Shown here piece by piece: positions 6,532 to 39,887 of a DNA stretch of 64,000 nucleotides. A model generated the notes under the pieces. The model made no database searches, was not told the DNA's origin, and saw only the letters and a list, made by a program, of their open reading frames with translations. Source of the DNA: Candidatus Nomurabacteria bacterium (lineage in GTDB: Bacteria > Patescibacteriota > Minisyncoccia > Phycocordibacterales > CAIZLB01); assembly GCA_943356525.1 (NCBI GenBank), contig CALRFG010000002.1, forward strand, positions 27,783 through 91,782. Direction: 5' to 3'. Within the stretch, counting starts at the first letter, position 1; every line of letters starts with the position of its first letter. The position numbers were made by a program, and so were the translations under genes.

Positions 6532-7527
6532 ATGAAAAAATATATCTCCACTATTGTCGCAATGTTCTGCATTGCAAATCTCTGCCTAGCTCAAACGCCT
6601 ATAACTCCAGTCATTATGCCGGATCGTATCTCCATTGGAGAAATCGCCGTCGTTGAGGCTTTAGCTAAAGCGACAACTGTATATGTTGTCTGCGGGTCGG
6701 CATCGACCTTGAGACCGTTTGAGTTTACACAACCTCTTGGTGATGTAGATTCGATAGATGACTTAAAAAAAGTCATTGAAAGGATATATGTAGATTTTGT
6801 TACTATGGATCCAAAAGAGCAAATAAATTTAGCTGTCCGCATCAATGATGTGAATGGAATGAACTTATTTAGGTCTGATACAAGTTTCCAGCTTGAAAAG
6901 GTGCGTGATACACTTAGCAATAAGTTTATTTACCAAACACCATACTACGCTGGGAATCTCTGGTTTAGTTTATGTGATTCAGAAGTACGGGTGCCTGGTG
7001 CTGTTATGGCGCATATGGTAAACCGTAATGGCGACATATATCAACTCAATGTTTTTGATGGGAGAATTCAAATCCCTGGTTGGATGAATCGCTCCGGCGA
7101 ATTTTCCGAGCTCGTGGTTGACAGTGTTCGTTATGATATGAATACTGGTATCAAACTACGTTCTGAAAGGTGTCAACCACAATTTTTAAATGTTGATTTC
7201 AACCAAGTACAAAAGATGGAGTATAGTACTGGTTTAAACAGTATCTACAGTGCTCCGCAGTATGGATATATTCCGAACACTGAAATTAAGCCGACCAACA
7301 GTCAAATGATAATTGAGTTTCAAACTGGGGAATGGAGCTGGGCTTACCCGATTTCTGTTTACATCGCCACATTGGATGATCTCAAGTCAGGAGGAAAAGG
7401 ATGGAAAGTCTACCCTTATTCTACTGGTATGATTATCCCTGTGATTCCAGGAAAAACCTATTATGTTTGGCCTGAATATCAAGATAGCGTGATTGGTTCC
7501 AATGTTGGAACAGGAGGTAAAGGCTAA
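6532..7527 (+). CDS. secreted hypothetical protein (signal peptide), higher GC than surroundings
   Basis: N-terminal MKKYISTIVAMFCIANLCLA signal; 331-aa ORF; no recognisable domain. Confidence 0.6.
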   Translation: MKKYISTIVAMFCIANLCLAQTPITPVIMPDRISIGEIAVVEALAKATTVYVVCGSASTLRPFEFTQPLGDVDSIDDLKKVIERIYVDFVTMDPKEQINLAVRINDVNGMNLFRSDTSFQLEKVRDTLSNKFIYQTPYYAGNLWFSLCDSEVRVPGAVMAHMVNRNGDIYQLNVFDGRIQIPGWMNRSGEFSELVVDSVRYDMNTGIKLRSERCQPQFLNVDFNQVQKMEYSTGLNSIYSAPQYGYIPNTEIKPTNSQMIIEFQTGEWSWAYPISVYIATLDDLKSGGKGWKVYPYSTGMIIPVIPGKTYYVWPEYQDSVIGSNVGTGGKG

Positions 7528-7588: not shown

Positions 7589-7639
7589 GTATAAATATAC
7601 ATGGAAAAATATCTCTAAATTTTGGATTCCAGTCAAATG

Positions 7640-7667
7640 TTGACAACTAGGCTTACGAGTGTATTAT
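7640..7667 (+). promoter_or_regulatory. near-consensus sigma70-type promoter (TTGACA-N16-TATTAT)
   Basis: TTGACA 7640-7645, TATTAT 7662-7667. Confidence 0.5.
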
Positions 7668-7674
7668 TAACCCC

Positions 7675-7860
7675 GATGCCTGCCAAGTTCATGGTGGAAA
7701 ATCGTAGGCATTTCGTGCTGTTTATTAGCTTGTATTTAGAACTCAGTTTCCTGATAAGAAACGTGGAGATTATTTTAAAACAGGCCAAAAGCAGTAAATA
7801 CGAGACCTTGTCGACAAACCTGAAAAGGTTAATTGTCGACAAGGTCATTTTTTTATTTAC
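7675..7860 (+). ncRNA. candidate ~185-nt sRNA or cis-regulatory leader (promoter to terminator)
   Basis: bounded by promoter above and the 7803-7860 terminator; internal hairpins; overlapping ORFs judged spurious. Confidence 0.3.
7803..7860 (+). terminator. strong hairpin terminator (14-bp perfect stem containing CCTTGTCGACAA) plus T-run
   Basis: GACCTTGTCGACAA...TTGTCGACAAGGTC then CATTTTTTTATTT. Confidence 0.65.
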
Positions 7861-8188: not shown

Positions 8189-8262
8189 TACCCGATCGTC
8201 TAACGGTAGGACAACGGTTTCTGGAACCGTTAATTGGGGTTCGAGTCCCTGTCGGGTAACCA
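8189..8262 (+). tRNA. tRNA-Gln (anticodon CUG), CCA encoded
   Basis: acceptor TACCCGA/TCGGGTA; D-stem GTCT/GGAC; anticodon stem ACGGT/ACCGT with loop TTCTGGA; T-arm with GGTTCGAGTCC; discriminator A; U1-A72. Confidence 0.8.
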
Positions 8263-8288
8263 ACTTGAGCTAGCACGAGGTGCGCCAT
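8263..8288 (+). repeat. tRNA-Gln trailer core (AACTTGAGCTAGCACGAGGTGCG); prototype of repeat family
   Basis: this exact trailer recurs in 6 downstream intergenic repeats. Confidence 0.7.
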
Positions 8289-8326
8289 TTCTATATTAAT
8301 AAAATCTACTGTATAATTATTTGTAT
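8289..8326 (+). promoter_or_regulatory. conserved promoter/5' module type 1
   Basis: near-identical to 12059-12089; TATAAT 9 nt before ATG. Confidence 0.55.
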
Positions 8327-9862
8327 ATGAAAAATAAACAAAGTGGTTTTGTTGGAATTATTTTAATAATCATCATTCTTGTCTTGATTGGTGGTGGAAC
8401 TTATTTTTATTTCATCAATACTTCTAAAAGTAATTACGAGGAGCAGTTGGCTATCTTAGGTCCCAAAGGAATTTCAAATCTACTTAATCAAAATTCCACA
8501 GGATCATCTGGAATTCAAAAAGAAATATCAAAGAAGATTTTAAATGAGTCTGGTGATATACAAGAGAGAATTGGTCTTGCTCGTATATTAGGTGAATCAA
8601 ACACTGCTGAAGCATTAGAGACACTTTCAAAAGTAATTTTTACAACAAAAAATGAAGAGTTGTATAGAAGTAGTGTGGAACAATTAAGTCGAATGAGTGG
8701 TGCTAGTTCAGAAGAAGAATCTAAGCAAATGACCGATATTGCTATTGCTTCTTATGAAAAGTCGGCACAAAAACCAGAACTATATTATCTGTTTGGAGGG
8801 ATTGTAGCTAAGTTAGGTGAATCTAACGGTGTTAATTTTCTTAGAAATGAAGCAATCAAAGGAGGGTTAACTATTTCATTACTTAATACCAGTAAAAATG
8901 AGTCAGCTAAAGTTTCAATGGAACTATCTAAATCTATTCGTGGAAGATTATCTGTACCAACACTTGCCAATTCTTTACAAATAAATGATCCGAATTCAAC
9001 AGAATTTATTTGGTCTGGACAAGCTTTGTCGTCAATACAATTTCAGGAGGGGGCAGAAGCTCTTTTAAATTGGTCAAAAAACGCACCAGATAATTGCGCT
9101 GAACTAGCTGCGATATGGTTAAGTGGTTTTAGAGACAGTCATTCAATAGATGTAATGCTGGCACTAGATATATCCAATACTCAGTATGTAAGTCAAAAGG
9201 TAAAAAATGAAGTTATGGGTGCTGTTAAAAATTACAAGAAACAATATCAATCATTAATAAACACTCCAGCTCCTGAAAAAATTGATTCAGCAACTCAAAA
9301 GATAAAAATTCTTAAAATGATTGAGGATAAAATACAGAATGATACAATCACAATTGATGATCGTGTTAAATTTCTTGCTGCTTTTACTATTTTAGGCGAT
9401 GAAAAGATAACTAATCAATGGAATATTTTTATAACAAGTCCTGATATGGAAACGGCTAAAAAAAATAAAGATATTTTAATTTATATGTTGTCTGATAAAA
9501 AACAGGTTCCAAAAATTTTAACAATCTCAATTGATCAGGTTAGAAAAAATATTATTGGCAAATGGCAAATGGTGAATGATAATCAATATTTGATTACATA
9601 CATGGGGGATGGAACTTATCAAAATGAAGGAAATAGTTTTAATCATGGTACTTGGAAATTATTAACAAATCTGAAAGAAGAAAAAGATGCTGCGTCTTTT
9701 GAGAGAGAGCTTCCAAATTCAGTGTATTTGAAAATTAATGAATATTCTAATGATAAATATTTGAGCCCAATGTATTACGCTGTTTCTATATCAGATACTG
9801 AAAACTTAAAATATGATTATTTAGGAACCTCAAAGAGTTTTAGTTTTAAGAGAATAAAATAA
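8321..9862 (+). CDS. pilin-like N-terminal (MKNKQSGF + hydrophobic) secreted/membrane protein; true start likely ATG 8327
   Basis: track start is TTG; N-terminus resembles type IV prepilin leader without Glu5. Confidence 0.65.
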   Translation: MYMKNKQSGFVGIILIIIILVLIGGGTYFYFINTSKSNYEEQLAILGPKGISNLLNQNSTGSSGIQKEISKKILNESGDIQERIGLARILGESNTAEALETLSKVIFTTKNEELYRSSVEQLSRMSGASSEEESKQMTDIAIASYEKSAQKPELYYLFGGIVAKLGESNGVNFLRNEAIKGGLTISLLNTSKNESAKVSMELSKSIRGRLSVPTLANSLQINDPNSTEFIWSGQALSSIQFQEGAEALLNWSKNAPDNCAELAAIWLSGFRDSHSIDVMLALDISNTQYVSQKVKNEVMGAVKNYKKQYQSLINTPAPEKIDSATQKIKILKMIEDKIQNDTITIDDRVKFLAAFTILGDEKITNQWNIFITSPDMETAKKNKDILIYMLSDKKQVPKILTISIDQVRKNIIGKWQMVNDNQYLITYMGDGTYQNEGNSFNHGTWKLLTNLKEEKDAASFERELPNSVYLKINEYSNDKYLSPMYYAVSISDTENLKYDYLGTSKSFSFKRIK

Positions 9863-9870
9863 AATTTTCA

Positions 9871-9988
9871 ACTCGCTCAAGTACCATCAAAATAACATCC
9901 TTAAATTATTATAAATAACATTACAGGGTATAGGACTATGTGGTTCCAGCTCAAACCACCTAACCAACTTGAGCGTGCACGAGGTGCA
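9871..9988 (+). repeat. array repeat R1 (long form; diverged tRNA-Gln 3' half + trailer)
   Basis: ends GGTTCCAGCTCAAACCACCTAACCAACTTGAGCGTGCACGAGGTGCA; aligns base-for-base with tRNA T-arm/acceptor/trailer spacing. Confidence 0.75.
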
Positions 9989-11038
9989 TCAACAATGCTA
10001 CAATTTTTATATATGGAAAATTCAAATATCACAACAGTAACAAAAACAAAAAAAACAGGTCTTATATTATTACTTATCTCAATCGGTCTTTCTATTTTTT
10101 CAGGTATTGGTTTAGCGATGTACTCACTTTCTAGAGGCTGTGGATATGACCGTTCATTTTTTATATGTTCTGGTATAGGTATAATATTTTATATTGTATT
10201 TTTTATAAATTTAATATTAATTATAATTTCTATTGCACAATTGATAAAACCCTTTTTTGCTGAAAGTTTAATTAAAAAAGTTTTAATCTTATATTTCTTT
10301 ATTATTTTATTAGTGGTAGTTTTTGATTTTTTTGGTCAAAGTTTAAAATCAACTGAAAGAGAGTGTTCGGTTGTTGATTTGTATGATAAAAAATCTTCAG
10401 GATCTTGTTATTTTAAACTTGCGCAAAATGAAAATGATATTTCATATTGTAGTAAAGCTGGTGAATACGAGGCAAGTTGTAATAAAGTAATGGCTAGTAA
10501 AACAAAAGATGTTTCTTATTGTGAAGACCAAAAGTGTATTAAAGATATTAATACAGAAAAAACTTTTGAAAATCTACAAATAGTTATTGAACCAATAGAA
10601 GGGAATCAGATAAGTAAAAATACTAAAAATTCAAAAATAGCAAAAGTTAAAATTGTCTCTAAAAATTATGATGGATGGATTTCATGGATAAGTTTTGGTG
10701 GATCTTCGAATATGACTTCTCTTATAACCTCAGGCAGTATAAAGTTTTATGATGAAAAGGGAAAATTAGTATTCTTTAGTGATGGTGCTAGTAATTTAGG
10801 CATAGATATAAAACCTAATACTACAAAATATTTAACAATATTTGCTGATACTGGCGGCATTAACGGTACTGTAAGTTTGGAATTAGACCCAATTGTTAGT
10901 GTATACAATCCAGACAGTCAAACTTTCAAAAATTTTAATAAATATAATTTAAAAGCAAATAATTTTGTAGGAATACCTGAAGGTTATACGCAACAACCAA
11001 CTCACTTGAGAAGTAAGGTTGAGCTCAATATTAGATAG
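9938..11038 (+). CDS. multi-TM membrane protein with Cys-rich extracytoplasmic domain; true start probably ATG 10013 (or 9995)
   Basis: N-terminal extension of track ORF runs through repeat R1; paralogous to 12959..13681. Confidence 0.6.
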   Translation: MWFQLKPPNQLERARGASTMLQFLYMENSNITTVTKTKKTGLILLLISIGLSIFSGIGLAMYSLSRGCGYDRSFFICSGIGIIFYIVFFINLILIIISIAQLIKPFFAESLIKKVLILYFFIILLVVVFDFFGQSLKSTERECSVVDLYDKKSSGSCYFKLAQNENDISYCSKAGEYEASCNKVMASKTKDVSYCEDQKCIKDINTEKTFENLQIVIEPIEGNQISKNTKNSKIAKVKIVSKNYDGWISWISFGGSSNMTSLITSGSIKFYDEKGKLVFFSDGASNLGIDIKPNTTKYLTIFADTGGINGTVSLELDPIVSVYNPDSQTFKNFNKYNLKANNFVGIPEGYTQQPTHLRSKVELNIR

Positions 11039-11055
11039 TATTTTGTCACTTTTTG

Positions 11056-11156
11056 ACTCGCTCAAGTACCATCAAAATAACACCTTTAAATTATTATAAA
11101 TAACATTACAGGGTATAGAACCATACGGTTCTAACTCAACACATCTAACCAACATG
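11056..11156 (+). repeat. array repeat R2 (long form, 3' end truncated)
   Basis: ~95% identical to R1 over CTCGCTCAAGTACCATCAAAATAACA...TTACAGGGTATAG. Confidence 0.75.
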
Positions 11157-11184
11157 TTTTCGCCTTATTTTTCAATATATTTTA

Positions 11185-11237
11185 TTGAGGTATATTGGAC
11201 GCTTGAACTTATTGTATAAAGTGCTATTATTTAATAA
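11185..11237 (+). promoter_or_regulatory. conserved promoter/5' module type 2
   Basis: GGACG..TTGAAC...TGTATAAAGTGCTATTATTTAATAA-ATG; near-identical copy at 12908-12958. Confidence 0.5.
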
Positions 11238-11624
11238 ATGAATACACAAAAAGGCTTTGCACCTATTTTAATAATTTTAGGGATTATTATCGGATTTTTA
11301 GTTATAAGCGGAACAGTCATTTTTTTAAATACCACATCAAATCAAAATCTTGAGCAAAACCCTAATAAGCCTATTGTTTCTAAAGTTAAATTCACTGCAC
11401 CAAGTGGTAAAGTCCTAGGTGGATATATAGTAGATTTTAAAACAGATACCGATCCTTCAATTGAATACAAAGTAATTTTAAGAAATAAACTCTTACCATT
11501 GTTTGGTGACGAAGATAAGAGTGCAGATTATGATTCAGAGTCTCTTTCAAAGTATTTGTTGAATACTGATATTGAAAATTATAAAATCGATGAGGGAGTT
11601 CCTACTCAACCTTTGTTTTTTTGA
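11238..11624 (+). CDS. pilin-like N-terminal protein (MNTQKGF...), 5' part of gene split by poly-T frameshift
   Basis: ORF ends at TGA just after T7 run 11616-11622; downstream ORF continues in +1 frame. Confidence 0.55.
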   Translation: MNTQKGFAPILIILGIIIGFLVISGTVIFLNTTSNQNLEQNPNKPIVSKVKFTAPSGKVLGGYIVDFKTDTDPSIEYKVILRNKLLPLFGDEDKSADYDSESLSKYLLNTDIENYKIDEGVPTQPLFF

Positions 11625-11967
11625 TTACCAGATACCAGTCGCTGATTTTCTGTCATACATTTATGGTCTTAATGAAAACATTCTTATTCCCAATAAGGAT
11701 AGATTTGAAAATGAAGATTGGATACTAAGTGTCCCCGAAGATCAGCGAGAAGATGCAAAGAAACAGTATTCACAAATAAAAAAATATGAAAATTATAAAA
11801 CTGACGTAAATTTATCGGATTTATCAAAATCATTTTATGTTGAAGTTCAGAAAATAAAAGGAGGTGCTGTTATTGATACTATGTACAGTGATTTATTTGA
11901 AATTGACAGAAAATTTTGTAACTTAAATCAGACAGTTTGGAGTAACAGGTGTAATTTCACAGAATAG
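11572..11967 (+). pseudogene. 3' continuation of 11238 gene in shifted frame (single ~243-aa gene if one T added or removed)
   Basis: frames join as ...PLFF|DYQIPVADFL across the T7 tract. Confidence 0.45.
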
Positions 11968-11977
11968 TAAAAATTCT

Positions 11978-12057
11978 TTCTCCTCGTATCAAACAGGTTC
12001 TAACATCGTCCAAGAGGCCCAACCAACATGAGCTAGCACGAGGTGCGTGTATTTTAC
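11978..12057 (+). repeat. array repeat R3 (variant B)
   Basis: TCAAACAGGTTCTAAC..GTCCAAGAGGCCCAACCAACATGAGCTAGCACGAGGTGCG. Confidence 0.7.
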
Positions 12058-12058
12058 A

Positions 12059-12089
12059 TTAATAAAATCTACTGTATAATTATTTATAT
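12059..12089 (+). promoter_or_regulatory. conserved promoter/5' module type 1 (second copy)
   Basis: TTAATAAAATCTACTGTATAATTATTTATAT-ATG, same as 8289-8326. Confidence 0.55.
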
Positions 12090-12725
12090 ATGAAAAATAA
12101 AAACCGAGGATTTATAGCTCCTTTATTAATTATTATAATAGTGTTTATAGTAATTGCTGGTGGATTTTACTATTATTTTTTAAAAAACAAGAATCAACAA
12201 AACATCATTAATAATACCAATACAGATATTTCCTCTTTTGTTCCATCAAATATAAATGAGATTAAATTTGATAAGATTCAATACTTGTCTGCTAATGATC
12301 AAGGTTTTATTCTAAGGGGACTAGTTTATTTTAACGTAATTGGACAAGAATCAACCTCTACAAAAACTAGTGACGGAAATCTGTTGACGGTGGCCACACC
12401 GATTGTATTAATTGTTTTTGAATGTGCTAAAGAAAGTTCAACCATTTGTCAGAAATATTTAACTGACGGTATTGTAAAAAATAATCAGGATATGATTCAA
12501 AAAGAATTAACAATTTCCAATAAAAATATATCGTATTTTGAATTTAAGAAAATAAGCACAGATAGTTTTGTTAAACAAAGTGCAGGTCTCGTAAACACGG
12601 ATTCGACAACTTATGTTTGGTGTGAGGGTAAATTTTGTTTTCAAGTTCTTTCATATTATAAATTTGATATAATTACAAAAGATTTTGTAAATGGGGTTAT
12701 TGACACATATTCAAAAATAAAATAA
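12090..12725 (+). CDS. pilin-like N-terminal (MKNKNRGF) secreted protein
   Basis: same first four codons ATG AAA AAT AAA as 8327 gene; hydrophobic anchor. Confidence 0.65.
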   Translation: MKNKNRGFIAPLLIIIIVFIVIAGGFYYYFLKNKNQQNIINNTNTDISSFVPSNINEIKFDKIQYLSANDQGFILRGLVYFNVIGQESTSTKTSDGNLLTVATPIVLIVFECAKESSTICQKYLTDGIVKNNQDMIQKELTISNKNISYFEFKKISTDSFVKQSAGLVNTDSTTYVWCEGKFCFQVLSYYKFDIITKDFVNGVIDTYSKIK

Positions 12726-12778
12726 TTAATATTTTTTTTATTGGTAAAATTTGATATGGTGTCACAATTAATTTTCCC

Positions 12779-12876
12779 CTCGCTCAAGTACCATCAAAAT
12801 AACACCTTTAAATTATTATAGACAACCTTACAGGGTATAGAACCACACGGTTCCAGCTCAGACCACCTAGCACGAG
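12779..12876 (+). repeat. array repeat R4 (long form with internal 13-nt deletion in trailer)
   Basis: CTCGCTCAAGTACCATCAAAATAACACCTTTAAATTATTATAGACAACCTTACAGGGTATAGAACCACACGGTTCCAGCTCAGACCACCTAGCACGAG. Confidence 0.75.
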
Positions 12877-12907
12877 ATTTGGAGCTTATTTTAGCCTTTT
12901 AATATTT

Positions 12908-12958
12908 CATCCGTCTTGGACGGTGGAACTTTTTGCATAAAGTGTTATTATTTAATCA
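12908..12958 (+). promoter_or_regulatory. conserved promoter/5' module type 2 (second copy)
   Basis: GGACGGTGGAACTTTTTGCATAAAGTGTTATTATTTAATCA-ATG. Confidence 0.5.
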
Positions 12959-13681
12959 ATGAACAAACAAAAAAATATATTATTGATATTCTTCGTAATC
13001 GGTTTATTTATTAATTTATTTATTCCGTATGATATCTTTACTGATTTTAGTTTTGTTCCTGTTATATATTTTTCCATCATATTGATATGGGGTTCTATTT
13101 TAATTGTAAAATCGGATGAAATTAGAACAGCTAAAATATCAAAATTAACTTTGTTTACCATTTCAACATATTTTGCTTCACTTGCATCATTTTATTATCT
13201 TGGAAGGACAAGTTGGGGTAATGGTGAACCTATGTTAAATTTTTTAGCCACAACCCTTATAAGCTTAATTATATTTGTCGTTTTTTTAATAATAATGGGA
13301 AGAAAAAAGGCAAATGCGCAATCACCTACATCTGGTAATAAATTTTTTTCTAACTTATATTTAATCATTATCATTTTATTAAGTTATTCTATTGTTAATT
13401 TTGGTGGGGTTATTGGATTAACTGCAATAGCAACAGGTAATTATTCAGTATGTTCAGTTTTACCCACACCTTATGATTACTATGGTATTTTCCAATATTC
13501 TAAATTTGAAGCGCGCTCACAAGGAAGGTGTTTATATGATGTAGCAATAACAAGAAGAGATATTAAGAAGTGTAGTGATGCACCGAGGGAAGATATCGTA
13601 AAGAGGTGTGAAGACAAAATTAATGGAAAAATATCAAACAGTTATAGTTTCTGGAATTTTGTTGGAATTAGTAATAATTAA
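12959..13681 (+). CDS. multi-TM membrane protein with C-terminal Cys-rich domain (paralog of 10013..11038)
   Basis: similar TM + Cys pattern. Confidence 0.6.
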   Translation: MNKQKNILLIFFVIGLFINLFIPYDIFTDFSFVPVIYFSIILIWGSILIVKSDEIRTAKISKLTLFTISTYFASLASFYYLGRTSWGNGEPMLNFLATTLISLIIFVVFLIIMGRKKANAQSPTSGNKFFSNLYLIIIILLSYSIVNFGGVIGLTAIATGNYSVCSVLPTPYDYYGIFQYSKFEARSQGRCLYDVAITRRDIKKCSDAPREDIVKRCEDKINGKISNSYSFWNFVGISNN

Positions 13682-13720
13682 CGCATCATATTAGAGAGTG
13701 GGTATAAAAATTCTATATTA

Positions 13721-13778
13721 TTCTCAGTCAAACAGGTTCTAACGTCCAAGAGGCCCAACCAACATGAGCTAGCACGAG
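13721..13778 (+). repeat. array repeat R5 (variant B)
   Basis: TTCTCAGTCAAACAGGTTCTAACGTCCAAGAGGCCCAACCAACATGAGCTAGCACGAG. Confidence 0.7.
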
Positions 13779-13806
13779 ATGATTCGATATATGATATAAT
13801 CATTTT

Positions 13807-14130
13807 ATGAATGATGTAGAAATATTTTATATATCTTATCTAGTCGGAGCAATTGTCTTTGGAATACTTTTCCTCATTGTAATGCCCATCACTGCTTACA
13901 AGCGTGGCAAAGAGATTGGTAAATCCTGTCAATACAGTTCCATGGGTCTTTCGCTAGGTGGCGCTTTGTTTTTTGGACTAATGATAGGTATCGGCTATCT
14001 AGAGTCAGGACCTTATAACTATACTCACTCAGGATTTGAAGGTGTGATCCCAGGTATAATATCTCTACTTGGCGTTGCAGCAATTTTAGTCGGTATTGTA
14101 TGGAGAGTAATTGTGGGTGTTAGAAAATAA
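13807..14130 (+). CDS. small 3-TM membrane protein
   Basis: 107-aa hydrophobic ORF. Confidence 0.5.
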   Translation: MNDVEIFYISYLVGAIVFGILFLIVMPITAYKRGKEIGKSCQYSSMGLSLGGALFFGLMIGIGYLESGPYNYTHSGFEGVIPGIISLLGVAAILVGIVWRVIVGVRK

Positions 14131-14185
14131 CAATAATTTTTATAAAATACAAAGTGCTCGAGTCGCTTCGACTGGTCTATGCCAG

Positions 14186-14265
14186 AACAGGTCAAACCGA
14201 CCTTACAGGGTTTGACCTGTTAAGGTTCCAGCTCAATTCATCTAACCAACATGAGCTAGCACGAG
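14186..14265 (+). repeat. array repeat R6 (variant C, with perfect 13-bp inverted repeat AACAGGTCAAACC/GGTTTGACCTGTT)
   Basis: CCTTACAGGG...GGTTCCAGCTCAATTCATCTAACCAACATGAGCTAGCACGAG. Confidence 0.7.
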
Positions 14266-14295
14266 TGCTGTTGATTTCTGATATAATTATACTAT

Positions 14296-14829
14296 ATGAA
14301 ATTTTATCTATACCATCGAGTACCTGAAAATATGAAAGGAGACACCTTGTACCCGTTAAATATTTTAAAAGATAAATATCCTGAAATATATGCTTCCGGT
14401 ATTGAAAAATACAAAGGTCGTGAACAAGTAATGGAATGGTTTATTCCAAATCTTAATTGTTTTTGGAATGATGTGATTCATCTTACAGCATTACATCCAA
14501 AAATAGTGAAAGAAGCTCTTGTCGAAGCAGGGTATAAAGGGAATTATATAACAAGGTGTTATGAGATTGATCCCTCAATTCTCACTGTTGAAAATACAAT
14601 CGTGTATCTATATAAAAGTGAACCTGAAGATGGAAAATTTGATCCTGAAAATTTTGTAGAATTTAAACCTAAAGATATTGAACAGTATGCAATAATACCT
14701 CAATCTACAAAAGAACATTATAAAAGAAGTATTGAAAATGGTAAGATGCCCCTTACATTTGCTTGGGTGCCACATATCTTTTTTAAAGGATCAGTTGATG
14801 TTAAAGATTTAAATATAGTACATGACTAG
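14296..14829 (+). CDS. hypothetical cytoplasmic protein
   Basis: 177-aa ORF, no recognisable motif. Confidence 0.5.
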   Translation: MKFYLYHRVPENMKGDTLYPLNILKDKYPEIYASGIEKYKGREQVMEWFIPNLNCFWNDVIHLTALHPKIVKEALVEAGYKGNYITRCYEIDPSILTVENTIVYLYKSEPEDGKFDPENFVEFKPKDIEQYAIIPQSTKEHYKRSIENGKMPLTFAWVPHIFFKGSVDVKDLNIVHD

Positions 14830-14835
14830 TAAGGT

Positions 14836-14864
14836 ACGGTTCCAGCTCAATTCATCTAACCAAC
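14836..14864 (+). repeat. array repeat R7 (fragment)
   Basis: ACGGTTCCAGCTCAATTCATCTAACCAAC. Confidence 0.6.
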
Positions 14865-14932
14865 TGTCACATAATCTAGAGTTAAAAAATGCATAGCATT
14901 TTTGGGACTCAATAAGATGATATAATAAACCC

Positions 14933-15310
14933 ATGATATCCTTTTATGAAAATCATTCACCACAAGAATTTGGTCCTCAAATTCCAAATGAAGAAGAGAT
15001 TATTTCTTTGATTAAAGATTATGGACTATCTTCATCTGAGGCTACGGATACACTTTATATATGGTTAACGAATAAACAAAAAGAACATAATGAGTCTGAA
15101 AGTGTATATTCTCAATTAAAATTTAATATGGAAGTTTCAAATTTATATTTAAAAGCTGGATTGATAGACGAGGCGTATAAGTATTGTAACCAGGCTTGGA
15201 ATTATGTAAATGAATTTAAACTTCGTGGAGATAAGTTTGAAAATGAATTTTTAGATATTTGTAGAAATATTTTAGAGCTAAGTGATAATATAGATAAGAA
15301 ATATTTTTAA
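14933..15310 (+). CDS. hypothetical protein
   Basis: 125-aa ORF. Confidence 0.45.
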   Translation: MISFYENHSPQEFGPQIPNEEEIISLIKDYGLSSSEATDTLYIWLTNKQKEHNESESVYSQLKFNMEVSNLYLKAGLIDEAYKYCNQAWNYVNEFKLRGDKFENEFLDICRNILELSDNIDKKYF

Positions 15311-17264: not shown

Positions 17265-17405
17265 GATTGCTGTAATTTGTTCTGGTAATGTCTAAGCCAC
17301 TTAGCCTTGACCTATATAGCTTATCATATTACAGTTTTTTTGTCAAGTTTTGTCAATAGAAATTTATTTACTCAATAAAGTAAATAAATTTTATGATATA
17401 ATTAA

Positions 17406-18401
17406 TTGTATATGCAAAATAGAATTTATATAACAAGACAAATACCATCCATCGGAATAGAAATTTTAAAAGATAAAGGCTATGAAGTTACGGTAGGCAA
17501 AGAAAAAAAACCATTATCACAAAAAGACATAATAAAGATTTTACAAAAAGCTGAGAAAAATGGACAACCATACAACATATTACTCACACTTTTAACAGAT
17601 AATATAGATAAAACTGTATTTGATATAGCACCATCACTTAAAATGATTTCTAACTACGCTATAGGCTATGACAATGTTGATGTAAAAGAAGCATGTCATA
17701 GAGGAATAATGGTTACGAATACACCTGGAGATTATATAGGATCCATAGCAGAGCATGTTGTAGCTATGACATTATCGCTTTGTAATCGTATTGCTGAAGC
17801 AGATCGCTTTGTTAGAATGGGCCGATACAAAGGCTGGGACCCTATGATTATGATAGGGCATGATGTAAGTGATAAAACTATAGGTATTGTAGGTGCGGGG
17901 CGTATAGGAGCTAAAGTCGCTTATACTTTCAATAAAGGTTTTGGTTGTCCTATAGTGTATTTTGACCAAAACAAAAATGACTCAATTGAGCATGATTGTG
18001 GGGCAAAAAGAGTTGAAAGTCTCGATGAATTATTAAAACAGTCTGATATCGTATCTTTACATGTACCTCTTAACGATCAAACTCATCATATGGTCAATAA
18101 AAGCTTCATTTCTAAAATGAAATCTGATTCTTTTATTATAAACACGTCCCGAGGTGCTGTTATTGATGAAAAATATTTATATGAAGCGCTCAAAGAAAAT
18201 AAAATTGCAGGGGCAGGTTTAGATGTATTCGAGTTCGAACCAAAAGTTACAAAAGGTTTAACAAAGCTTGGAAATGTTATACTTACTCCGCACATAGCCT
18301 CAGCTAGTATAAAAGCGAGAGACATTATGGCAAGAGTCGCGGCACAAAATATTATTGATTTCGTTGAGGGGAAAAATATGATCAATAGTTGTGTAAAATA
18401 A
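17406..18401 (+). CDS. D-isomer specific 2-hydroxyacid dehydrogenase (true start ATG 17412)
   Basis: GIVGAGRIGAKVA NAD fold and family similarity. Confidence 0.8.
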   Translation: MYMQNRIYITRQIPSIGIEILKDKGYEVTVGKEKKPLSQKDIIKILQKAEKNGQPYNILLTLLTDNIDKTVFDIAPSLKMISNYAIGYDNVDVKEACHRGIMVTNTPGDYIGSIAEHVVAMTLSLCNRIAEADRFVRMGRYKGWDPMIMIGHDVSDKTIGIVGAGRIGAKVAYTFNKGFGCPIVYFDQNKNDSIEHDCGAKRVESLDELLKQSDIVSLHVPLNDQTHHMVNKSFISKMKSDSFIINTSRGAVIDEKYLYEALKENKIAGAGLDVFEFEPKVTKGLTKLGNVILTPHIASASIKARDIMARVAAQNIIDFVEGKNMINSCVK

Positions 18402-18448: not shown

Positions 18449-18486
18449 TTTCTGAAGATAAAAAAAATATGCTACAATAAAGCAAT

Positions 18487-19086
18487 ATGAAATTAACTTG
18501 TTCCATTAAAACAGATTTAAAAAATGCATATTTAACTCCAAAGATTGGAGTATCAGCAACAGCAGATGGAAGTTTCTTAAAACAAGAAGCGTATGAAATT
18601 GCCAAAGAATTAGGAAGAGAGATTGTTGATCAAGGAGGTATATTAGTTACAGGAGCTTCTAGTGGATTTCCATTCTGGTCGGCACAAGGGGCAAAACAAG
18701 CAGGCGGTCTTTCTATGGGTTATTCTCCAGCCCAAAGTCCAAAAGACCATACTGACGTATATAGATTACCCTTAGAGTATATGGATGTAATAACCTTTAC
18801 AGGTTTTGGATACCCAGGACGTGATCTTATATTTACGCGTTCATGTGATGCTATTATTATCGGTCCAGGTCGTATTGGAACTATACATGAGTTCAGTATT
18901 GCATATGAAGACGGAAAGCCGTTAGGTATATTACAAAGCGATGGTTGGGAAACAGATGAGATTTTACAGTTGATTATAGAGAAAAGTCATAGACAAAATC
19001 CTTATGTAATTTTTGAAAAAGATCCAAAAAAACTTATTCGCGGCATCATGGACATGATAAGGCAACAAAGGGGTGGTTTTTTTTAG
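18487..19086 (+). CDS. LOG/TIGR00730-family Rossmann-fold nucleotide-binding protein
   Basis: GGxG...PGRIGTIHEF pattern. Confidence 0.5.
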   Translation: MKLTCSIKTDLKNAYLTPKIGVSATADGSFLKQEAYEIAKELGREIVDQGGILVTGASSGFPFWSAQGAKQAGGLSMGYSPAQSPKDHTDVYRLPLEYMDVITFTGFGYPGRDLIFTRSCDAIIIGPGRIGTIHEFSIAYEDGKPLGILQSDGWETDEILQLIIEKSHRQNPYVIFEKDPKKLIRGIMDMIRQQRGGFF

Positions 19087-19297: not shown

Positions 19298-20587
19298 ATG
19301 ATACAAGATAAAAACATAAAAATAAATTTTATTCTTAAAAGAGACAACTCTGTTGTTGATTTCAACACAAATAAAATATTTATAGCATTAGAAAAAGCCT
19401 TAATAGGTTCTGGTGAGTATAAGGAAGGGTTGGCTAAGGATTTGTCAAACCAAGTTGTTAAAAAAATAAGAGATAATCATCAAGAAGAAGGTAGTATACC
19501 TTCAGTAGAAAGTATACAAGACATGGTGGAGATAGTTCTTATGGACAATGAATTACACATAACTGCAAAAGCTTATATTTTATATCGTGAAAAACGCGCT
19601 GAGCTAAGAAAGAAAGATATTTTCAAAAAAAGAGTTGCATTGAGACCTAGTGAATATCCAGAACTTTTAGAATATGTTGACGGTATCAGGCATTCATACT
19701 GGCTACACACAGAGTTTAATTTCACATCAGACGTTCATGATTATAAAGTAAACATAAATGAAGTTGAAAGATCGGCTATAAAAAATGCCATGCTAGCCAT
19801 AGCTCAGATTGAAGTTTCTGTTAAAACTTTTTGGGGTGATATATATAAAAAGATGCCAAAACCAGAAATAGGAGCAGTTGGATCAACTTTTGCTGAAAGT
19901 GAGGCAAGGCATCATGATGCATATGCGAGTCTACTTGAGATTTTGGGTATAAATGATGAGTTTGATAATATAAAAAATATCCCCGCTATCATGGGTAGGG
20001 TTAATTATATAGAAAAAGCTATATCTCATTCAGGGTCAGACAACAATCAGGATTATTCAAAAACATTATTACTATTTTCATTATTTATAGAGCATGTTTC
20101 TTTATTTTCTCAGTTTCTGATTATAATGTCTTTCAACAAACAGAAGTCATTGTTTAGAGGTATGTCAAACGTTATCGAGGCAACCTCAAAAGAAGAACAG
20201 ATACATGGTTTGTTTGGAATAGACTTGATGAAGATAATAAAGCAAGAAAATCCTACATGGTTCAACGAAGAATATGAGCAAAGTGTGATAAATATATGTA
20301 AAGAGGCATATGAGGCAGAGGAAAAGATTATAGATTGGATTTTTGAAAAAGGAGAGCTAGATTTTATGCCTTCAGATGTTGTCAAAGAATTTGTAAAAAA
20401 TAGATTCAATAATTCACTATCATCAATAGGTATAAGGAAGATATTTGAAATAGATGAAGCGAAATTAGAGCAAACAGAATGGTTCGACGATGAGATAATG
20501 ACAACAAAACACGGTGATTTCTTTGTAAAAAGATCAGTAAATTATAACAAAAGAGTCGGAAGTACAACTGGGGATGACTTATTTTAA
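19298..20587 (+). CDS. nrdB: ribonucleotide reductase class I beta subunit with N-terminal ATP-cone
   Basis: N-terminal ILKRDNSVVDFNTNKI ATP-cone signature; ferritin-like di-iron ligands (ESEARHH, EEQIHG). Confidence 0.75.
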   Translation: MIQDKNIKINFILKRDNSVVDFNTNKIFIALEKALIGSGEYKEGLAKDLSNQVVKKIRDNHQEEGSIPSVESIQDMVEIVLMDNELHITAKAYILYREKRAELRKKDIFKKRVALRPSEYPELLEYVDGIRHSYWLHTEFNFTSDVHDYKVNINEVERSAIKNAMLAIAQIEVSVKTFWGDIYKKMPKPEIGAVGSTFAESEARHHDAYASLLEILGINDEFDNIKNIPAIMGRVNYIEKAISHSGSDNNQDYSKTLLLFSLFIEHVSLFSQFLIIMSFNKQKSLFRGMSNVIEATSKEEQIHGLFGIDLMKIIKQENPTWFNEEYEQSVINICKEAYEAEEKIIDWIFEKGELDFMPSDVVKEFVKNRFNNSLSSIGIRKIFEIDEAKLEQTEWFDDEIMTTKHGDFFVKRSVNYNKRVGSTTGDDLF

Positions 20588-22341: not shown

Positions 22342-22428
22342 GGAGGATTGGATGAGTGGTTGAAATCAACAGTTTACTAAACTGTCGAGCCTTAACGGGT
22401 TCCGTGAGTTCGAATCTCACATCCTCCG
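22342..22428 (+). tRNA. type-II (long variable arm) tRNA, Ser-like (G73), apparent anticodon ACU; CCA not encoded
   Basis: acceptor GGAGGAT/ATCCTCC; 3-bp D-stem; anticodon stem ACAGT/ACTGT with loop TTACTAA; T-arm GTGAG-TTCGAAT-CTCAC. Confidence 0.65.
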
Positions 22429-22434
22429 CAAAGT

Positions 22435-38954: not shown

Positions 38955-39887
38955 TTATCTTGAAATTATATCAGTCATTGCTTTATTTATTCCATCCCAC
39001 CAACCGTCTCCACTAGTATCTCTTTTATTCGGATCTGTTTTTTTGCAATCTTTATTATTCTTAAAATTTCCAGAACATGTTTCTTCATTATCCGTTAACC
39101 CATCTTTATCTTTATCAATATCAATTACCATTTCTTTTAAAGATTTATCGGCTTCAGCTTGTGTAATTTTTGGTCCATCAGTAGTTGTAGTTGATGGTAC
39201 GCTCCAAACTAGTTCATTCTTAGAAAGAATCTTCCATCCTCCTTTATCGTTTACAAACATAATAATACCTTTCTTATAACCATAAGATTCTGGCTTATTA
39301 TCTTTTAGTAAACCTGTTGAATATATAGCCTGTTTTTCATCCTGCCATATATTAACATAGTCACTTTTATTCATTTTAGTATTTTGTTCCAAAAGATAGG
39401 GGAATAGTTCTTTTAATTGAGATGATTCTTCTGCTGTAGGCTGTATATAATAGAGTTTTTTTATAGATTCAACATCTTTATTTTTTAATGCAAGTGTTTC
39501 TTTGTCGATATTCGACCACAGGTCAGTGGTATTATTTGATTTAATATTATTTTCTAGATTATTCAAAGTTTCAATTTTGGACGATGTTGCAAGGGTAGTA
39601 TTCTCTTGAGTAGTTGTTGCTGTACTATCGACAGTAGTTGTAGAATTAGATACTATAACTTCTTCCTCATTAGCATTATTTGACGATGCTTCAGTAGTAG
39701 TATTCTCTTGAGTGGTTGCTGAAGTATTATCGACAGTGTTTGTAGAAGTAGATACTTTAGCATCTTCCTTAATAGCTAATTCTACTTTTTTACTTTCTAG
39801 ATAGACATAAGTTCCTCCACCAATTGATAATATTAATACTATTGCAATCATTGATGCGATTAAAAATCCTTTTTGTTGGTTTTTCAT
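38955..39887 (-). CDS. pilin-like N-terminal (MKNQQKGF) Thr-rich surface protein with acidic TSP3-like C-terminal repeats
   Basis: same N-terminal signature as array genes; DKDGLTDNEE motif. Confidence 0.6.
   Translation of the reverse strand: MKNQQKGFLIASMIAIVLILSIGGGTYVYLESKKVELAIKEDAKVSTSTNTVDNTSATTQENTTTEASSNNANEEEVIVSNSTTTVDSTATTTQENTTLATSSKIETLNNLENNIKSNNTTDLWSNIDKETLALKNKDVESIKKLYYIQPTAEESSQLKELFPYLLEQNTKMNKSDYVNIWQDEKQAIYSTGLLKDNKPESYGYKKGIIMFVNDKGGWKILSKNELVWSVPSTTTTDGPKITQAEADKSLKEMVIDIDKDKDGLTDNEETCSGNFKNNKDCKKTDPNKRDTSGDGWWDGINKAMTDIISR

Follow-up and report, generated by a model that had tools for sequence, protein, structure and literature searches.

A tRNA-Gln-anchored array of single-gene, integrase-free units in Candidatus Nomurabacteria, with a site core common to two classes of Patescibacteria

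The genomes of Patescibacteria, or the Candidate Phyla Radiation (CPR), are very small, and although few mobile elements have been recognised in them, their accessory genes vary widely. Here we describe an array of one-gene units that follows a tRNA-Gln gene in a 64,000-nucleotide (nt; 64-kb) stretch of Candidatus Nomurabacteria DNA, contig CALRFG010000002.1, positions 27,783 to 91,782, which is called the window below. The intact tRNA-Gln(CTG) lies at 8189-8262 on the + strand, where ARAGORN and Rfam agree (56 bits), and seven units, all co-oriented, sit 3′ of it. Each unit gene is followed by a repeat copy that begins 7-54 nt past the stop codon, and the copies share GGTTCNAGCTCAA-N6-CTAACCAAC and/or AACCAAC-W-TGAGCNNGCACGAG with the 3′ end and trailer of the tRNA. 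The G+C content is 27-30% in the array as against 31-39% in its flanks. The features are listed here, with P and P′ for the left and right arms of a repeat copy, O for the common core between them, B-O for the tRNA side and B′ for the unique host sequence at the far end; junctions are numbered IG1 to IG7, and L-numbers denote loci on other contigs. Relatives with the same flanks were fetched via homologues of the 331-amino-acid (aa) protein encoded upstream of tRNA-Gln. The gene caller starts unit 2 at 9938, inside a repeat, and the ATG at 10013 is taken instead.

8189-8262 (+): tRNA-Gln(CTG), the anchor, attL side (B-O); CCA gene-encoded, within the shared core TAACCAAC
8258-8283 (+): tRNA trailer, common core and start of the P′ arm, AACCAAC-T-TGAGCTAGCACGAG-GTGC
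8327-9862 (+): unit 1 gene, 511 aa; N-terminal MKNKQSGF membrane anchor, weak HEAT-repeat match
9865-9988 (+): junction IG1, complete P-O-P′ hybrid of long P arm, core and P′ (nhmmer E 1e-34)
10013-11038 (+): unit 2 gene, 341 aa from ATG 10013; multiple transmembrane (TM) segments, Cys-rich domain, no Pfam match
11051-11156 (+): junction IG2, long P arm and CTAACCAACATG; core shortened by a small deletion that took out AGCTAGCACGAGA
11238-11967 (+): unit 3 gene, two overlapping open reading frames (ORFs; 11238-11624 and 11572-11967), split at a T7 run at 11615-11621
11988-12047, approximately (+): junction IG3, class-B short P arm, core and P′
12090-12725 (+): unit 4 gene, 211 aa; MKNKNRGF anchor, no Pfam match
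12772-12879 (+): junction IG4, long P arm; core deleted between CTA...CTA (ACCAACATGAGCTA gone)
12959-13681 (+): unit 5 gene, 240 aa; multiple TM segments, Cys-rich tail, no Pfam match
13716-13781 (+): junction IG5, class-B P arm, core and P′
13807-14130 (+): unit 6 gene, 107 aa, small membrane protein
14150-14269 (+): junction IG6, a P arm of its own with a 13-bp hairpin, then GGTTCCAGCTCAATTCATCTAACCAAC and P′
14296-14829 (+): unit 7 gene, 177 aa; a perfect 27-nt direct repeat on both sides
14826-14864 (+): terminal junction IG7, short P-arm piece and CTAACCAAC, then unique host sequence; without TGAGCTAGCACGAG, P-O-B′ (attR-like)
14884-15310 (+): start of the right flank, promoter region and 125-aa gene, common to L018

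The repeats are confined to this region. The motif GGTTCNARNTCA-N6-CTAACCAAC occurs five times in the 64 kb (8238, 9942, 11127, 14224 and 14838; 0.03 expected) and TGAGCTAGCACGAG also five times (8266, 9970, 12029, 13765 and 14252; 0.10 expected), and every match to either motif is on the + strand and inside 8238-14864. An nhmmer profile built from 12 repeat copies and run over the window at E ≤ 1 matches only the array copies and the tRNA trailer. The motif chance test and nhmmer thus join ARAGORN and Rfam in bearing out the initial annotation of the window, which had read the region as a tRNA-Gln-anchored array with repeats punctuating one-gene units. Its three variant repeat classes are also upheld, and different units carry different arm types: the long class (IG1, IG2 and IG4) is in register for 107 nt with 80-87% identity, class B comprises IG3 and IG5, and class C comprises IG6 and IG7, which have a perfect 27-mer in common.

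The copies have a composite anatomy. Their P arms range from 20 to 95 nt, and the upstream arm shared by the long copies, put at ~65 nt in the initial annotation, measures about 75-95 nt. The long, IG6 and L009-type arms begin on the left with CTCGCTCAAGT, GTGCTCGAG or GCTTGCTCGAG, which repeats ACTTGAGCTAG in inverted orientation; in class B there is only weak pairing with the distal CACGAGG. The right end of the P arm is a conserved T-loop-like box (GGTTCNAGCTCAA / GGTTCCAGCTCAA), followed by ~6 variable nt, by CTAACCAAC-W-TGAGC-NN-GCACGAG(GTGC) and then by unit-specific sequence with a -10-like box. The common core is therein AACCAAC-W-TGAGC-NN-GCACGAG, from which the P′ arm continues into the unit's own putative promoter, and around the core lies a 28-bp imperfect palindrome, AGCTCA-N16-TGAGCT. 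The box, the TAACCAAC sequence, the trailer and a 14-nt spacing are held in common with tRNA-Gln; this spacing, earlier given for the repeats from GGTTC to TAACCAAC, holds for the long and C classes and is longer in class B. The functional T-stem and acceptor sequence of the tRNA is not retained in the copies, which places any crossover that leaves the tRNA whole at TAACCAAC or beyond it.

On either side of the 22-nt common core, the P and P′ arms are combined independently of each other. One P arm is common to IG1, IG2 and IG4 and another to IG3 and IG5, while one P′ arm is common to IG2 and IG4 and another to the tRNA trailer and IG3; the last extends for 119 nt (8258-8376 and 12021-12139, 80% identity) through the promoter and into the coding region. 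The point at which similarity switches is always within the core, AACCAAC...CACGAG. The pattern of conserved GGTTCCAGCTCAA, 6 variable nt and conserved CTAACCAACATGAGC..GCACGAG, together with the palindrome, points to protein-binding boxes rather than neutral decay. Two other readings of the junctions were set aside: GGTGCG plus an AT-rich stretch after the trailer, which might be called dif-like, is not conserved among the copies, and a small GCAC-GAG-GTGC hairpin of the kind found at IS200/IS605-type ends is present in only some of them.

We think it probable that the array arose by serial site-specific integration of integrase-less one-gene units at tRNA-Gln. Small circular or otherwise mobilised one-gene units, each with an attP-like site, would have been inserted successively by a site-specific recombinase, either at the extreme 3′ end of tRNA-Gln or at a site copy inserted before. 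A crossover within the core would keep the tRNA intact (B-O-P′), internal junctions would become P-O-P′ hybrids and one terminal P-O-B′ copy would remain. The observed layout fits this prediction: the tRNA is B-O-P′, the internal junctions are P-O-P′, and the last copies, IG7 here and one at ~7350 in L018, have P and CTAAC(CAAC) and are missing TGAGCTAGCACGAG, as expected of P-O-B′. Such units would be integrase-less and cis-mobilizable or satellite-like, and the recombinase would act in trans, because no unit encodes one. The anatomy, the tie to tRNA-Gln in several CPR lineages, the full replacement of units between related species and the independent combination of arms are observed; the enzyme, its class (tyrosine or serine), its exact cleavage points and any present activity of the array are inferred.

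The regular position of the copies might instead reflect a role in RNA or expression, with each repeat a tRNA-like 3′-untranslated processing or stability element, terminator or operator, one per gene. Every copy does have a stop codon before it and a promoter-like -10 after it, the fold of IG6 is a good one (z -4.5) and some arms contain hairpins, but the six long copies give only -4.7 kcal/mol in RNAalifold with essentially no covariation, and RNA and DNA folds of single copies disagree. No Rfam family matches the repeats at the gathering threshold or even at E ≤ 10, the real tRNA being the only match; the copies are not scored as pieces of tRNA, and neither an acceptor nor a T stem is there for RNase P or Z to act on. 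Four terminator-like sites were counted where 2.5 ± 1.5 are expected, and a single one of them, a weak site at IG3, touches a repeat; neither promoter-like nor terminator-like sites are in excess over shuffles. The element is missing from the 40-odd other intergenic regions of the window, and such a role would leave both the tRNA anchoring and the replacement of units between relatives (below) unexplained. We consider it very improbable.

Comparison with relatives at the same locus fits serial integration. Three related genomes were compared: the one from which the window comes, that of L018/L019/L020 and that of L015/L016. Among named relatives, 'Candidatus Paceibacteria bacterium JTS-AC102' is the closest. 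The left flank is common to all three and runs rpoC, DUF2238, an RNase-J-like gene, prfB, a ~83-aa gene, the 330-aa gene, an 84-aa gene (a low-complexity protein in the window) and tRNA-Gln(CTG), whose sequences in the window and L018 are 98.6% identical. On the right, genes for 332-aa and 77-aa proteins are present in all three and the 125-aa gene in the window and L018. Between these flanks L018/L019/L020 have five different one-gene units (412, 237, 165 [NUDIX], 319 and 243 aa), co-oriented and each followed by a repeat, the last by a degenerate terminal copy (~7335-7361) that is without the P′ motif. In L015/L016 only the tRNA trailer is present, and other genes follow, including carotenoid-type enzymes. 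By BLAST among the fetched loci no unit protein is common to the genomes, and the flank proteins are 39-71% identical. Thus, units have been replaced in full between related species with conserved flanks.

Identity among the long repeat copies is 83-90% when both come from one genome and 80-90% when they come from two, with no clustering by genome, and the flanking coding DNA is 75-79% identical between genomes. The absence of clustering argues against concerted evolution of a gene family and fits units that each bring their own site. The initial annotation had also offered a recombination-homogenised multigene family, and this is not supported: the cargo proteins are unrelated, and repeat identity within genomes is not above that between them.

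The same identities might be thought to favour homologous recombination, in which the 50-120-nt repeats serve as portable homology patches and transformed DNA swaps or adds units by RecA crossovers. Natural competence has been reported for some Patescibacteria, no recombinase was found, and promoter and N-terminal modules common to otherwise unrelated units suggest exchange inside the array. However, the P-arm classes share only the 22-nt core and a 13-nt box, too short for efficient RecA exchange, and similarity switches at the core every time. Homology alone does not require the conserved-variable-conserved pattern or the palindrome, nor does it account for terminal copies without P′ or for a locus, L045 (below), in which the core co-varies with the tRNA 3′ end. 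We therefore hold this explanation to be unlikely.

The site is not peculiar to one lineage. In species-representative genomes and in metagenomes from the Joint Genome Institute (JGI), both of which were scanned for the exact 22-mer AACCAACNTGAGCNNGCACGAG, it was found directly after tRNA-Gln(CTG or TTG) in L006/L015, L008, L010/L024, L027 and L018, and ~50 nt past tRNA-Gln, behind a degenerate first copy, in L012/L032. A second exact copy lies one unit downstream in L008, and a relaxed pattern finds near-copies with 2-3 mismatches one unit downstream in L012/L032 and L027. The 22-mer is also present on short contigs with repeat-bounded genes (L009, L021, L029, L031 and L033) and in L028, where the 3′ half of tRNA-Gln is perfect and is followed by the trailer but the 5′ half is missing; no other perfect 3′ half was observed. 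All low-G+C (CPR) matches fit these groups: after tRNA-Gln, one unit on, short contigs, or L028. Nine high-G+C matches (Acidobacteriaceae, Piscinibacter and others; four in genomes and five in metagenomes) were dropped, as there is no tRNA beside them, and the four from the genome scan equal the chance estimate of about 4 (596 Gb x 2 / 4^19). The tRNA-Gln link of the site thus holds across CPR lineages. The 22-mer is identical in Saccharibacteria and Paceibacteria, and both also have class B (GGTTCTAACGTCGTCCACGACGGCCAACCAAC...) and, with L009 (nhmmer E 4e-9), a long class.

In the island of L045, a third lineage, the variant repeat core GGCCAGCCAAT+GATTT matches the 3′ end of its own tRNA-Gln, GGCAGCCAAT+AGATTT. 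That the core varies together with its target argues more strongly than any other single observation that units recombine with the tRNA.

A dispersed repeat of the REP (repetitive extragenic palindromic) or MITE (miniature inverted-repeat transposable element) kind was considered and rejected. No copy lies outside the array in the 64 kb, and the repeat motif is in none of L043, L047 and L050 (below). In JTS-AC102 the sole 22-mer-bearing contig attributed to the isolate in the species-representative collection has one match, at tRNA-Gln, so that the genome-wide repeat against which the initial annotation had cautioned is not what is seen.

Two further observations concern the targets. In Saccharibacteria-type loci (L012/L032/L021/L029/L033) CACGAGGAGCG is followed by a second tRNA-Gln 3′ piece, TTCGAATCCTAGCCCGCAA, starting exactly at the T-loop, and these double pieces look like nested duplications from two crossover positions. 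In L028 (1-2244) an IS3-like insertion sequence directly follows the transfer-messenger RNA (tmRNA) gene, and the tRNA-Gln(CTG) 3′ half plus trailer, then a gene, lie ~140 nt past that element; from this locus the tmRNA end may also be a target.

Several observations weigh against serial integration. In the window no recombinase or transposase family was found among non-overlapping ORFs of at least 110 aa searched at E ≤ 1e-4 to 1e-2 (three ORFs with no match were checked by eye), in agreement with the initial annotation, which saw no integrase or transposase there. Nor is there a recombinase in L018, L015, L008-L012, L021, L027-L033 or L045, or in a Pfam search of the cargo of the Saccharibacteria and Paceibacteria loci. 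The motifs were not found in IMG/VR viral contigs (0 matches for both), INPHARED phages or PLSDB plasmids, the long repeat has no match in the last two collections, and no free element is known. The stretch truly shared by tRNA and repeats is only 8-22 nt, shorter than in many tRNA-integrating elements, and the part from T-loop to acceptor diverges. The cores of IG2 and IG4 are damaged, each by a different small deletion, and their neighbouring units are therefore probably fixed. Among contigs with an identical 125-aa flank protein, presumably of the same species, 14/14 show the same units or break at the repeats, and no circular junction, same-species empty site or strain-level variation was present among the contigs examined. 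Cassette-level variation, which the initial annotation had proposed to look for, is therefore seen between related species with the same flanks and not among these 14 contigs, and current mobility is unproven.

One candidate for an unoccupied site is also open to objection. L034 (flank protein 55% identity) has at ~7620-7694 a tRNA-Gln(CTG) without an encoded CCA and without the trailer motif, the contig ending 14 nt further on. An unoccupied site would be expected to look like this, and it is possibly one, but it may be too distant to serve as an 'empty site'. The other tRNA of the window, a tRNA-Ser at 22342-22429, likewise has no encoded CCA, and the two together suggest that the CCAAC... 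of the occupied tRNA-Gln comes from the units. The anticodon of this tRNA-Ser gene, also in L038, is ACT, and its A at position 34 is uncommon among serine tRNAs. In L017 (10990-12154; flank protein 78% identity) a DUF3800 gene and 16S-rRNA-like sequence follow the 330-aa gene in place of the 84-aa gene and tRNA-Gln, through rearrangement or in a chimeric contig.

We also note that contigs from other samples end inside repeats or trailer (the end of L003, equal to window 9930, the starts of L038/L039 and L041/L042, and the end of L035). The array is therefore a systematic assembly breakpoint and likely under-represented in metagenome-assembled genomes (MAGs).

Invariance within the species, the deleted IG2 and IG4 cores and the frameshifted unit 3 would suit a fossil island, in which the repeats are decayed attL/attR scars of integrase-carrying elements (prophages or genomic islands) that entered at tRNA-Gln in the distant past and have since shed most of their genes, integrases among them, nothing is mobile now and the one-gene spacing is incidental; tandem islands with partial transfer or transfer-messenger RNA (t(m)RNA) gene repeats and degraded remnants are known (10.1101/2020.12.28.424599; PMC3146451). 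Decay of this kind would be uniform, however, and would leave no conserved-variable-conserved pattern; divergence in the P arms (80-90% identity) does not exceed that in the coding DNA of the flanks, the arms show no grouping by genome, and the 22-mer is the same in two CPR classes. Moreover, 12/12 units in two genomes (the window and L018) are single genes without an integrase fragment. A wholly fossil origin is accordingly rated improbable, a shade below homologous recombination, and both RecA-mediated exchange and a purely fossil array are less likely than serial integration, given that breakpoints centre on the core, that the boxes are conserved and that the units are uniformly single genes without an integrase.

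In the search for a recombinase, a helicase of the PLD-SNF2 type that adjoins tRNA-Gln in L010 was traced to the 273-kb contig L050, on which there is no tRNA-Gln, motif or integrase. L050 10001-19370 (GCA_964426385.1) encodes this helicase and an Eco57I-like methyltransferase, and the small genes downstream are separated by a different repeat of ~200 nt (17311-17511, 18468-18675, 18934-18978 and 19318-19367). Its identity between members of many CPR orders, 68-96% for the helicase, points to horizontal spread in recent times.

None of the 7 unit proteins has a Pfam match above the gathering score, and several have an N-terminal membrane anchor. The earlier description of cargo as 'pilin-like' is not supported, as no unit protein matches the pilin N_methyl family of Pfam at E ≤ 0.01. 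Every unit has a TGnTAnAAT-like, -10-like box that ends 7-11 nt before its ATG. In the 119-nt stretch shared by the trailer and IG3, the homology includes the promoter and first codons, and a second promoter/N-terminal stretch is shared by 11195-11252 and 12916-12973; these stretches (80-86% identity) encode the MKNK..GF anchor, and the rest of the proteins concerned is unrelated. It looks as if a promoter-plus-anchor module had been recombined onto different genes. Another protein with an MKNQQKGF, TM and GGG N-terminus is encoded outside the array at 38955-39887 (-), and the anchor type is therefore a genome-wide family rather than array-specific. The split of unit 3 at its seven-T run may mean that the gene is a pseudogene with a frameshift, that the tract is slippery or phase-variable, or that the assembly is wrong here. 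Unit 7 has homologues in a single further tRNA-Gln island, that of L045, and at two places that are not arrays, L043 and L047; the L045 homologue (58% identity) lies ~3 kb 3′ of the tRNA-Gln(CTG) and is likewise directly followed by GGTTCCAGC...

The array has much in common with integrons and with clusters of attC sites lacking integron integrases (CALINs; PMC4889954): mostly one-ORF, co-oriented cassettes of ~0.5-1.5 kb, a recombination site whose ends are imperfectly inverted at the close of each, additions at one fixed site, and highly variable content. The co-oriented single-ORF arrangement is seen in 7/7 units of the window and 5/5 of L018. The array is nevertheless not a canonical integron, as the initial annotation's comparison with an integron-style cassette array might imply; of that interpretation, the tie of the repeats to the tRNA-Gln 3′ end stands, and integron membership does not. 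There is no intI in the window, 0/8 junctions have the core-site pair RYYYAAC...GTTRRRY on either strand, and the fixed site is a tRNA 3′ end. By eye GCTCAAG/CTTGAGC fit RYYYAAC/GTTRRRY at 6/7 positions, which we judge to be chance, since most copies read CATGAGC and the conserved 3′ motif of the junctions is C(A/T)TGAGC. The inverted core sites of attC lie 57-141 nt apart and are kept as a folded hairpin rather than as sequence; the junctions here are conserved in sequence (80-90%), DNA folds of the copies agree on no long hairpin, and these folds give no evidence of single-strand folded substrates. Integron cassettes are mostly promoterless and read from a common Pc promoter; in sequence, each unit here has a -10-like box of its own, which may be a promoter.

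A closer likeness is to islands at t(m)RNA genes, where units lie one behind another at the 3′ end of the gene with partial gene copies between, and flanks are conserved and content variable. In the tycheposon islands of Prochlorococcus tandem integrations are separated by partial tRNAs, and degraded remnants are also present (10.1101/2020.12.28.424599). The tandem ssrA islands of Dehalococcoides are bounded by ssrA repeats, and for some of them, which have no integration module, cis-mobilization has been suggested (PMC3146451). Here too an intact tRNA lies at one end and partial 3′-end copies bound each unit, their identity limited to the T-loop-like box, TAACCAAC and the trailer. Those islands are kb to tens of kb in size, however, and many have a tyrosine (tycheposon) or serine (DsiB) integrase, while the 12 units of the two genomes are all single genes of 0.45-1.7 kb with no recombinase. 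The repeat here is also a 60-125-nt composite with inverted end motifs, not a mere tRNA fragment, and its site is common to two CPR classes. Cis-mobilizable elements (CIMEs) formed in accretion are similar in that functional-looking att sites bound segments without recombination genes, for which another element's recombinase has been proposed (PMC5704250, PMC7563491), and the units here have att-like bounds and no recombination or transfer genes. The described CIMEs adjoin a related integrase-bearing integrative and conjugative or mobilizable element (ICE/IME); here no partner is visible, and the units are much smaller and more numerous.

Recombinase-less gene modules are also moved by a host enzyme in the Xer-dependent systems, the integrative mobile elements exploiting Xer (IMEX) and the Acinetobacter plasmid pdif modules, at 28-bp sites (11-6-11). 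The palindrome AGCTCA-N16-TGAGCT is likewise 28 bp and imperfect, but the site here is at a tRNA end and not at dif, the junction copies are direct repeats where pdif modules are bounded by oppositely oriented sites, there is no xer gene in the window, and by eye there is no clear similarity to dif consensus sequences.

The mechanism class, accretion at a t(m)RNA gene, is thus already known. What is unusual here is the combination of integron-sized single-gene units with putative promoters, none of them with a recombinase, with a 60-125-nt composite site and one core across CPR classes; we found no description of tRNA-Gln arrays in CPR in the literature. A broader proposal, which is possible but which we advance only tentatively, is that Patescibacteria (at least Paceibacteria and Saccharibacteria) share an integron-like gene-capture platform. 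The tRNA-Gln 3′ end would be the fixed acceptor for a pool of integrase-less one-gene cassettes with the composite 22-nt-core site, and a recombinase encoded elsewhere, possibly a housekeeping Xer-type enzyme, would insert, excise and exchange cassettes between lineages.

Many of the variable genes in CPR encode surface proteins likely to be important for host-cell attachment. If the serial integration proposed here is true, promoter-bearing units anchored at tRNA-Gln, with a core common to distant CPR classes, would be a concrete route for gene flux in these organisms, and AACCAAC-W-TGAGCNNGCACGAG after tRNA-Gln would be a simple tag for variable loci in thousands of MAGs. In those few Saccharibacteria that can be manipulated genetically, the site could also be used as a landing pad. 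Should the enzyme act in trans, the arrangement would solve the same problem as integrons do, and independently of them.

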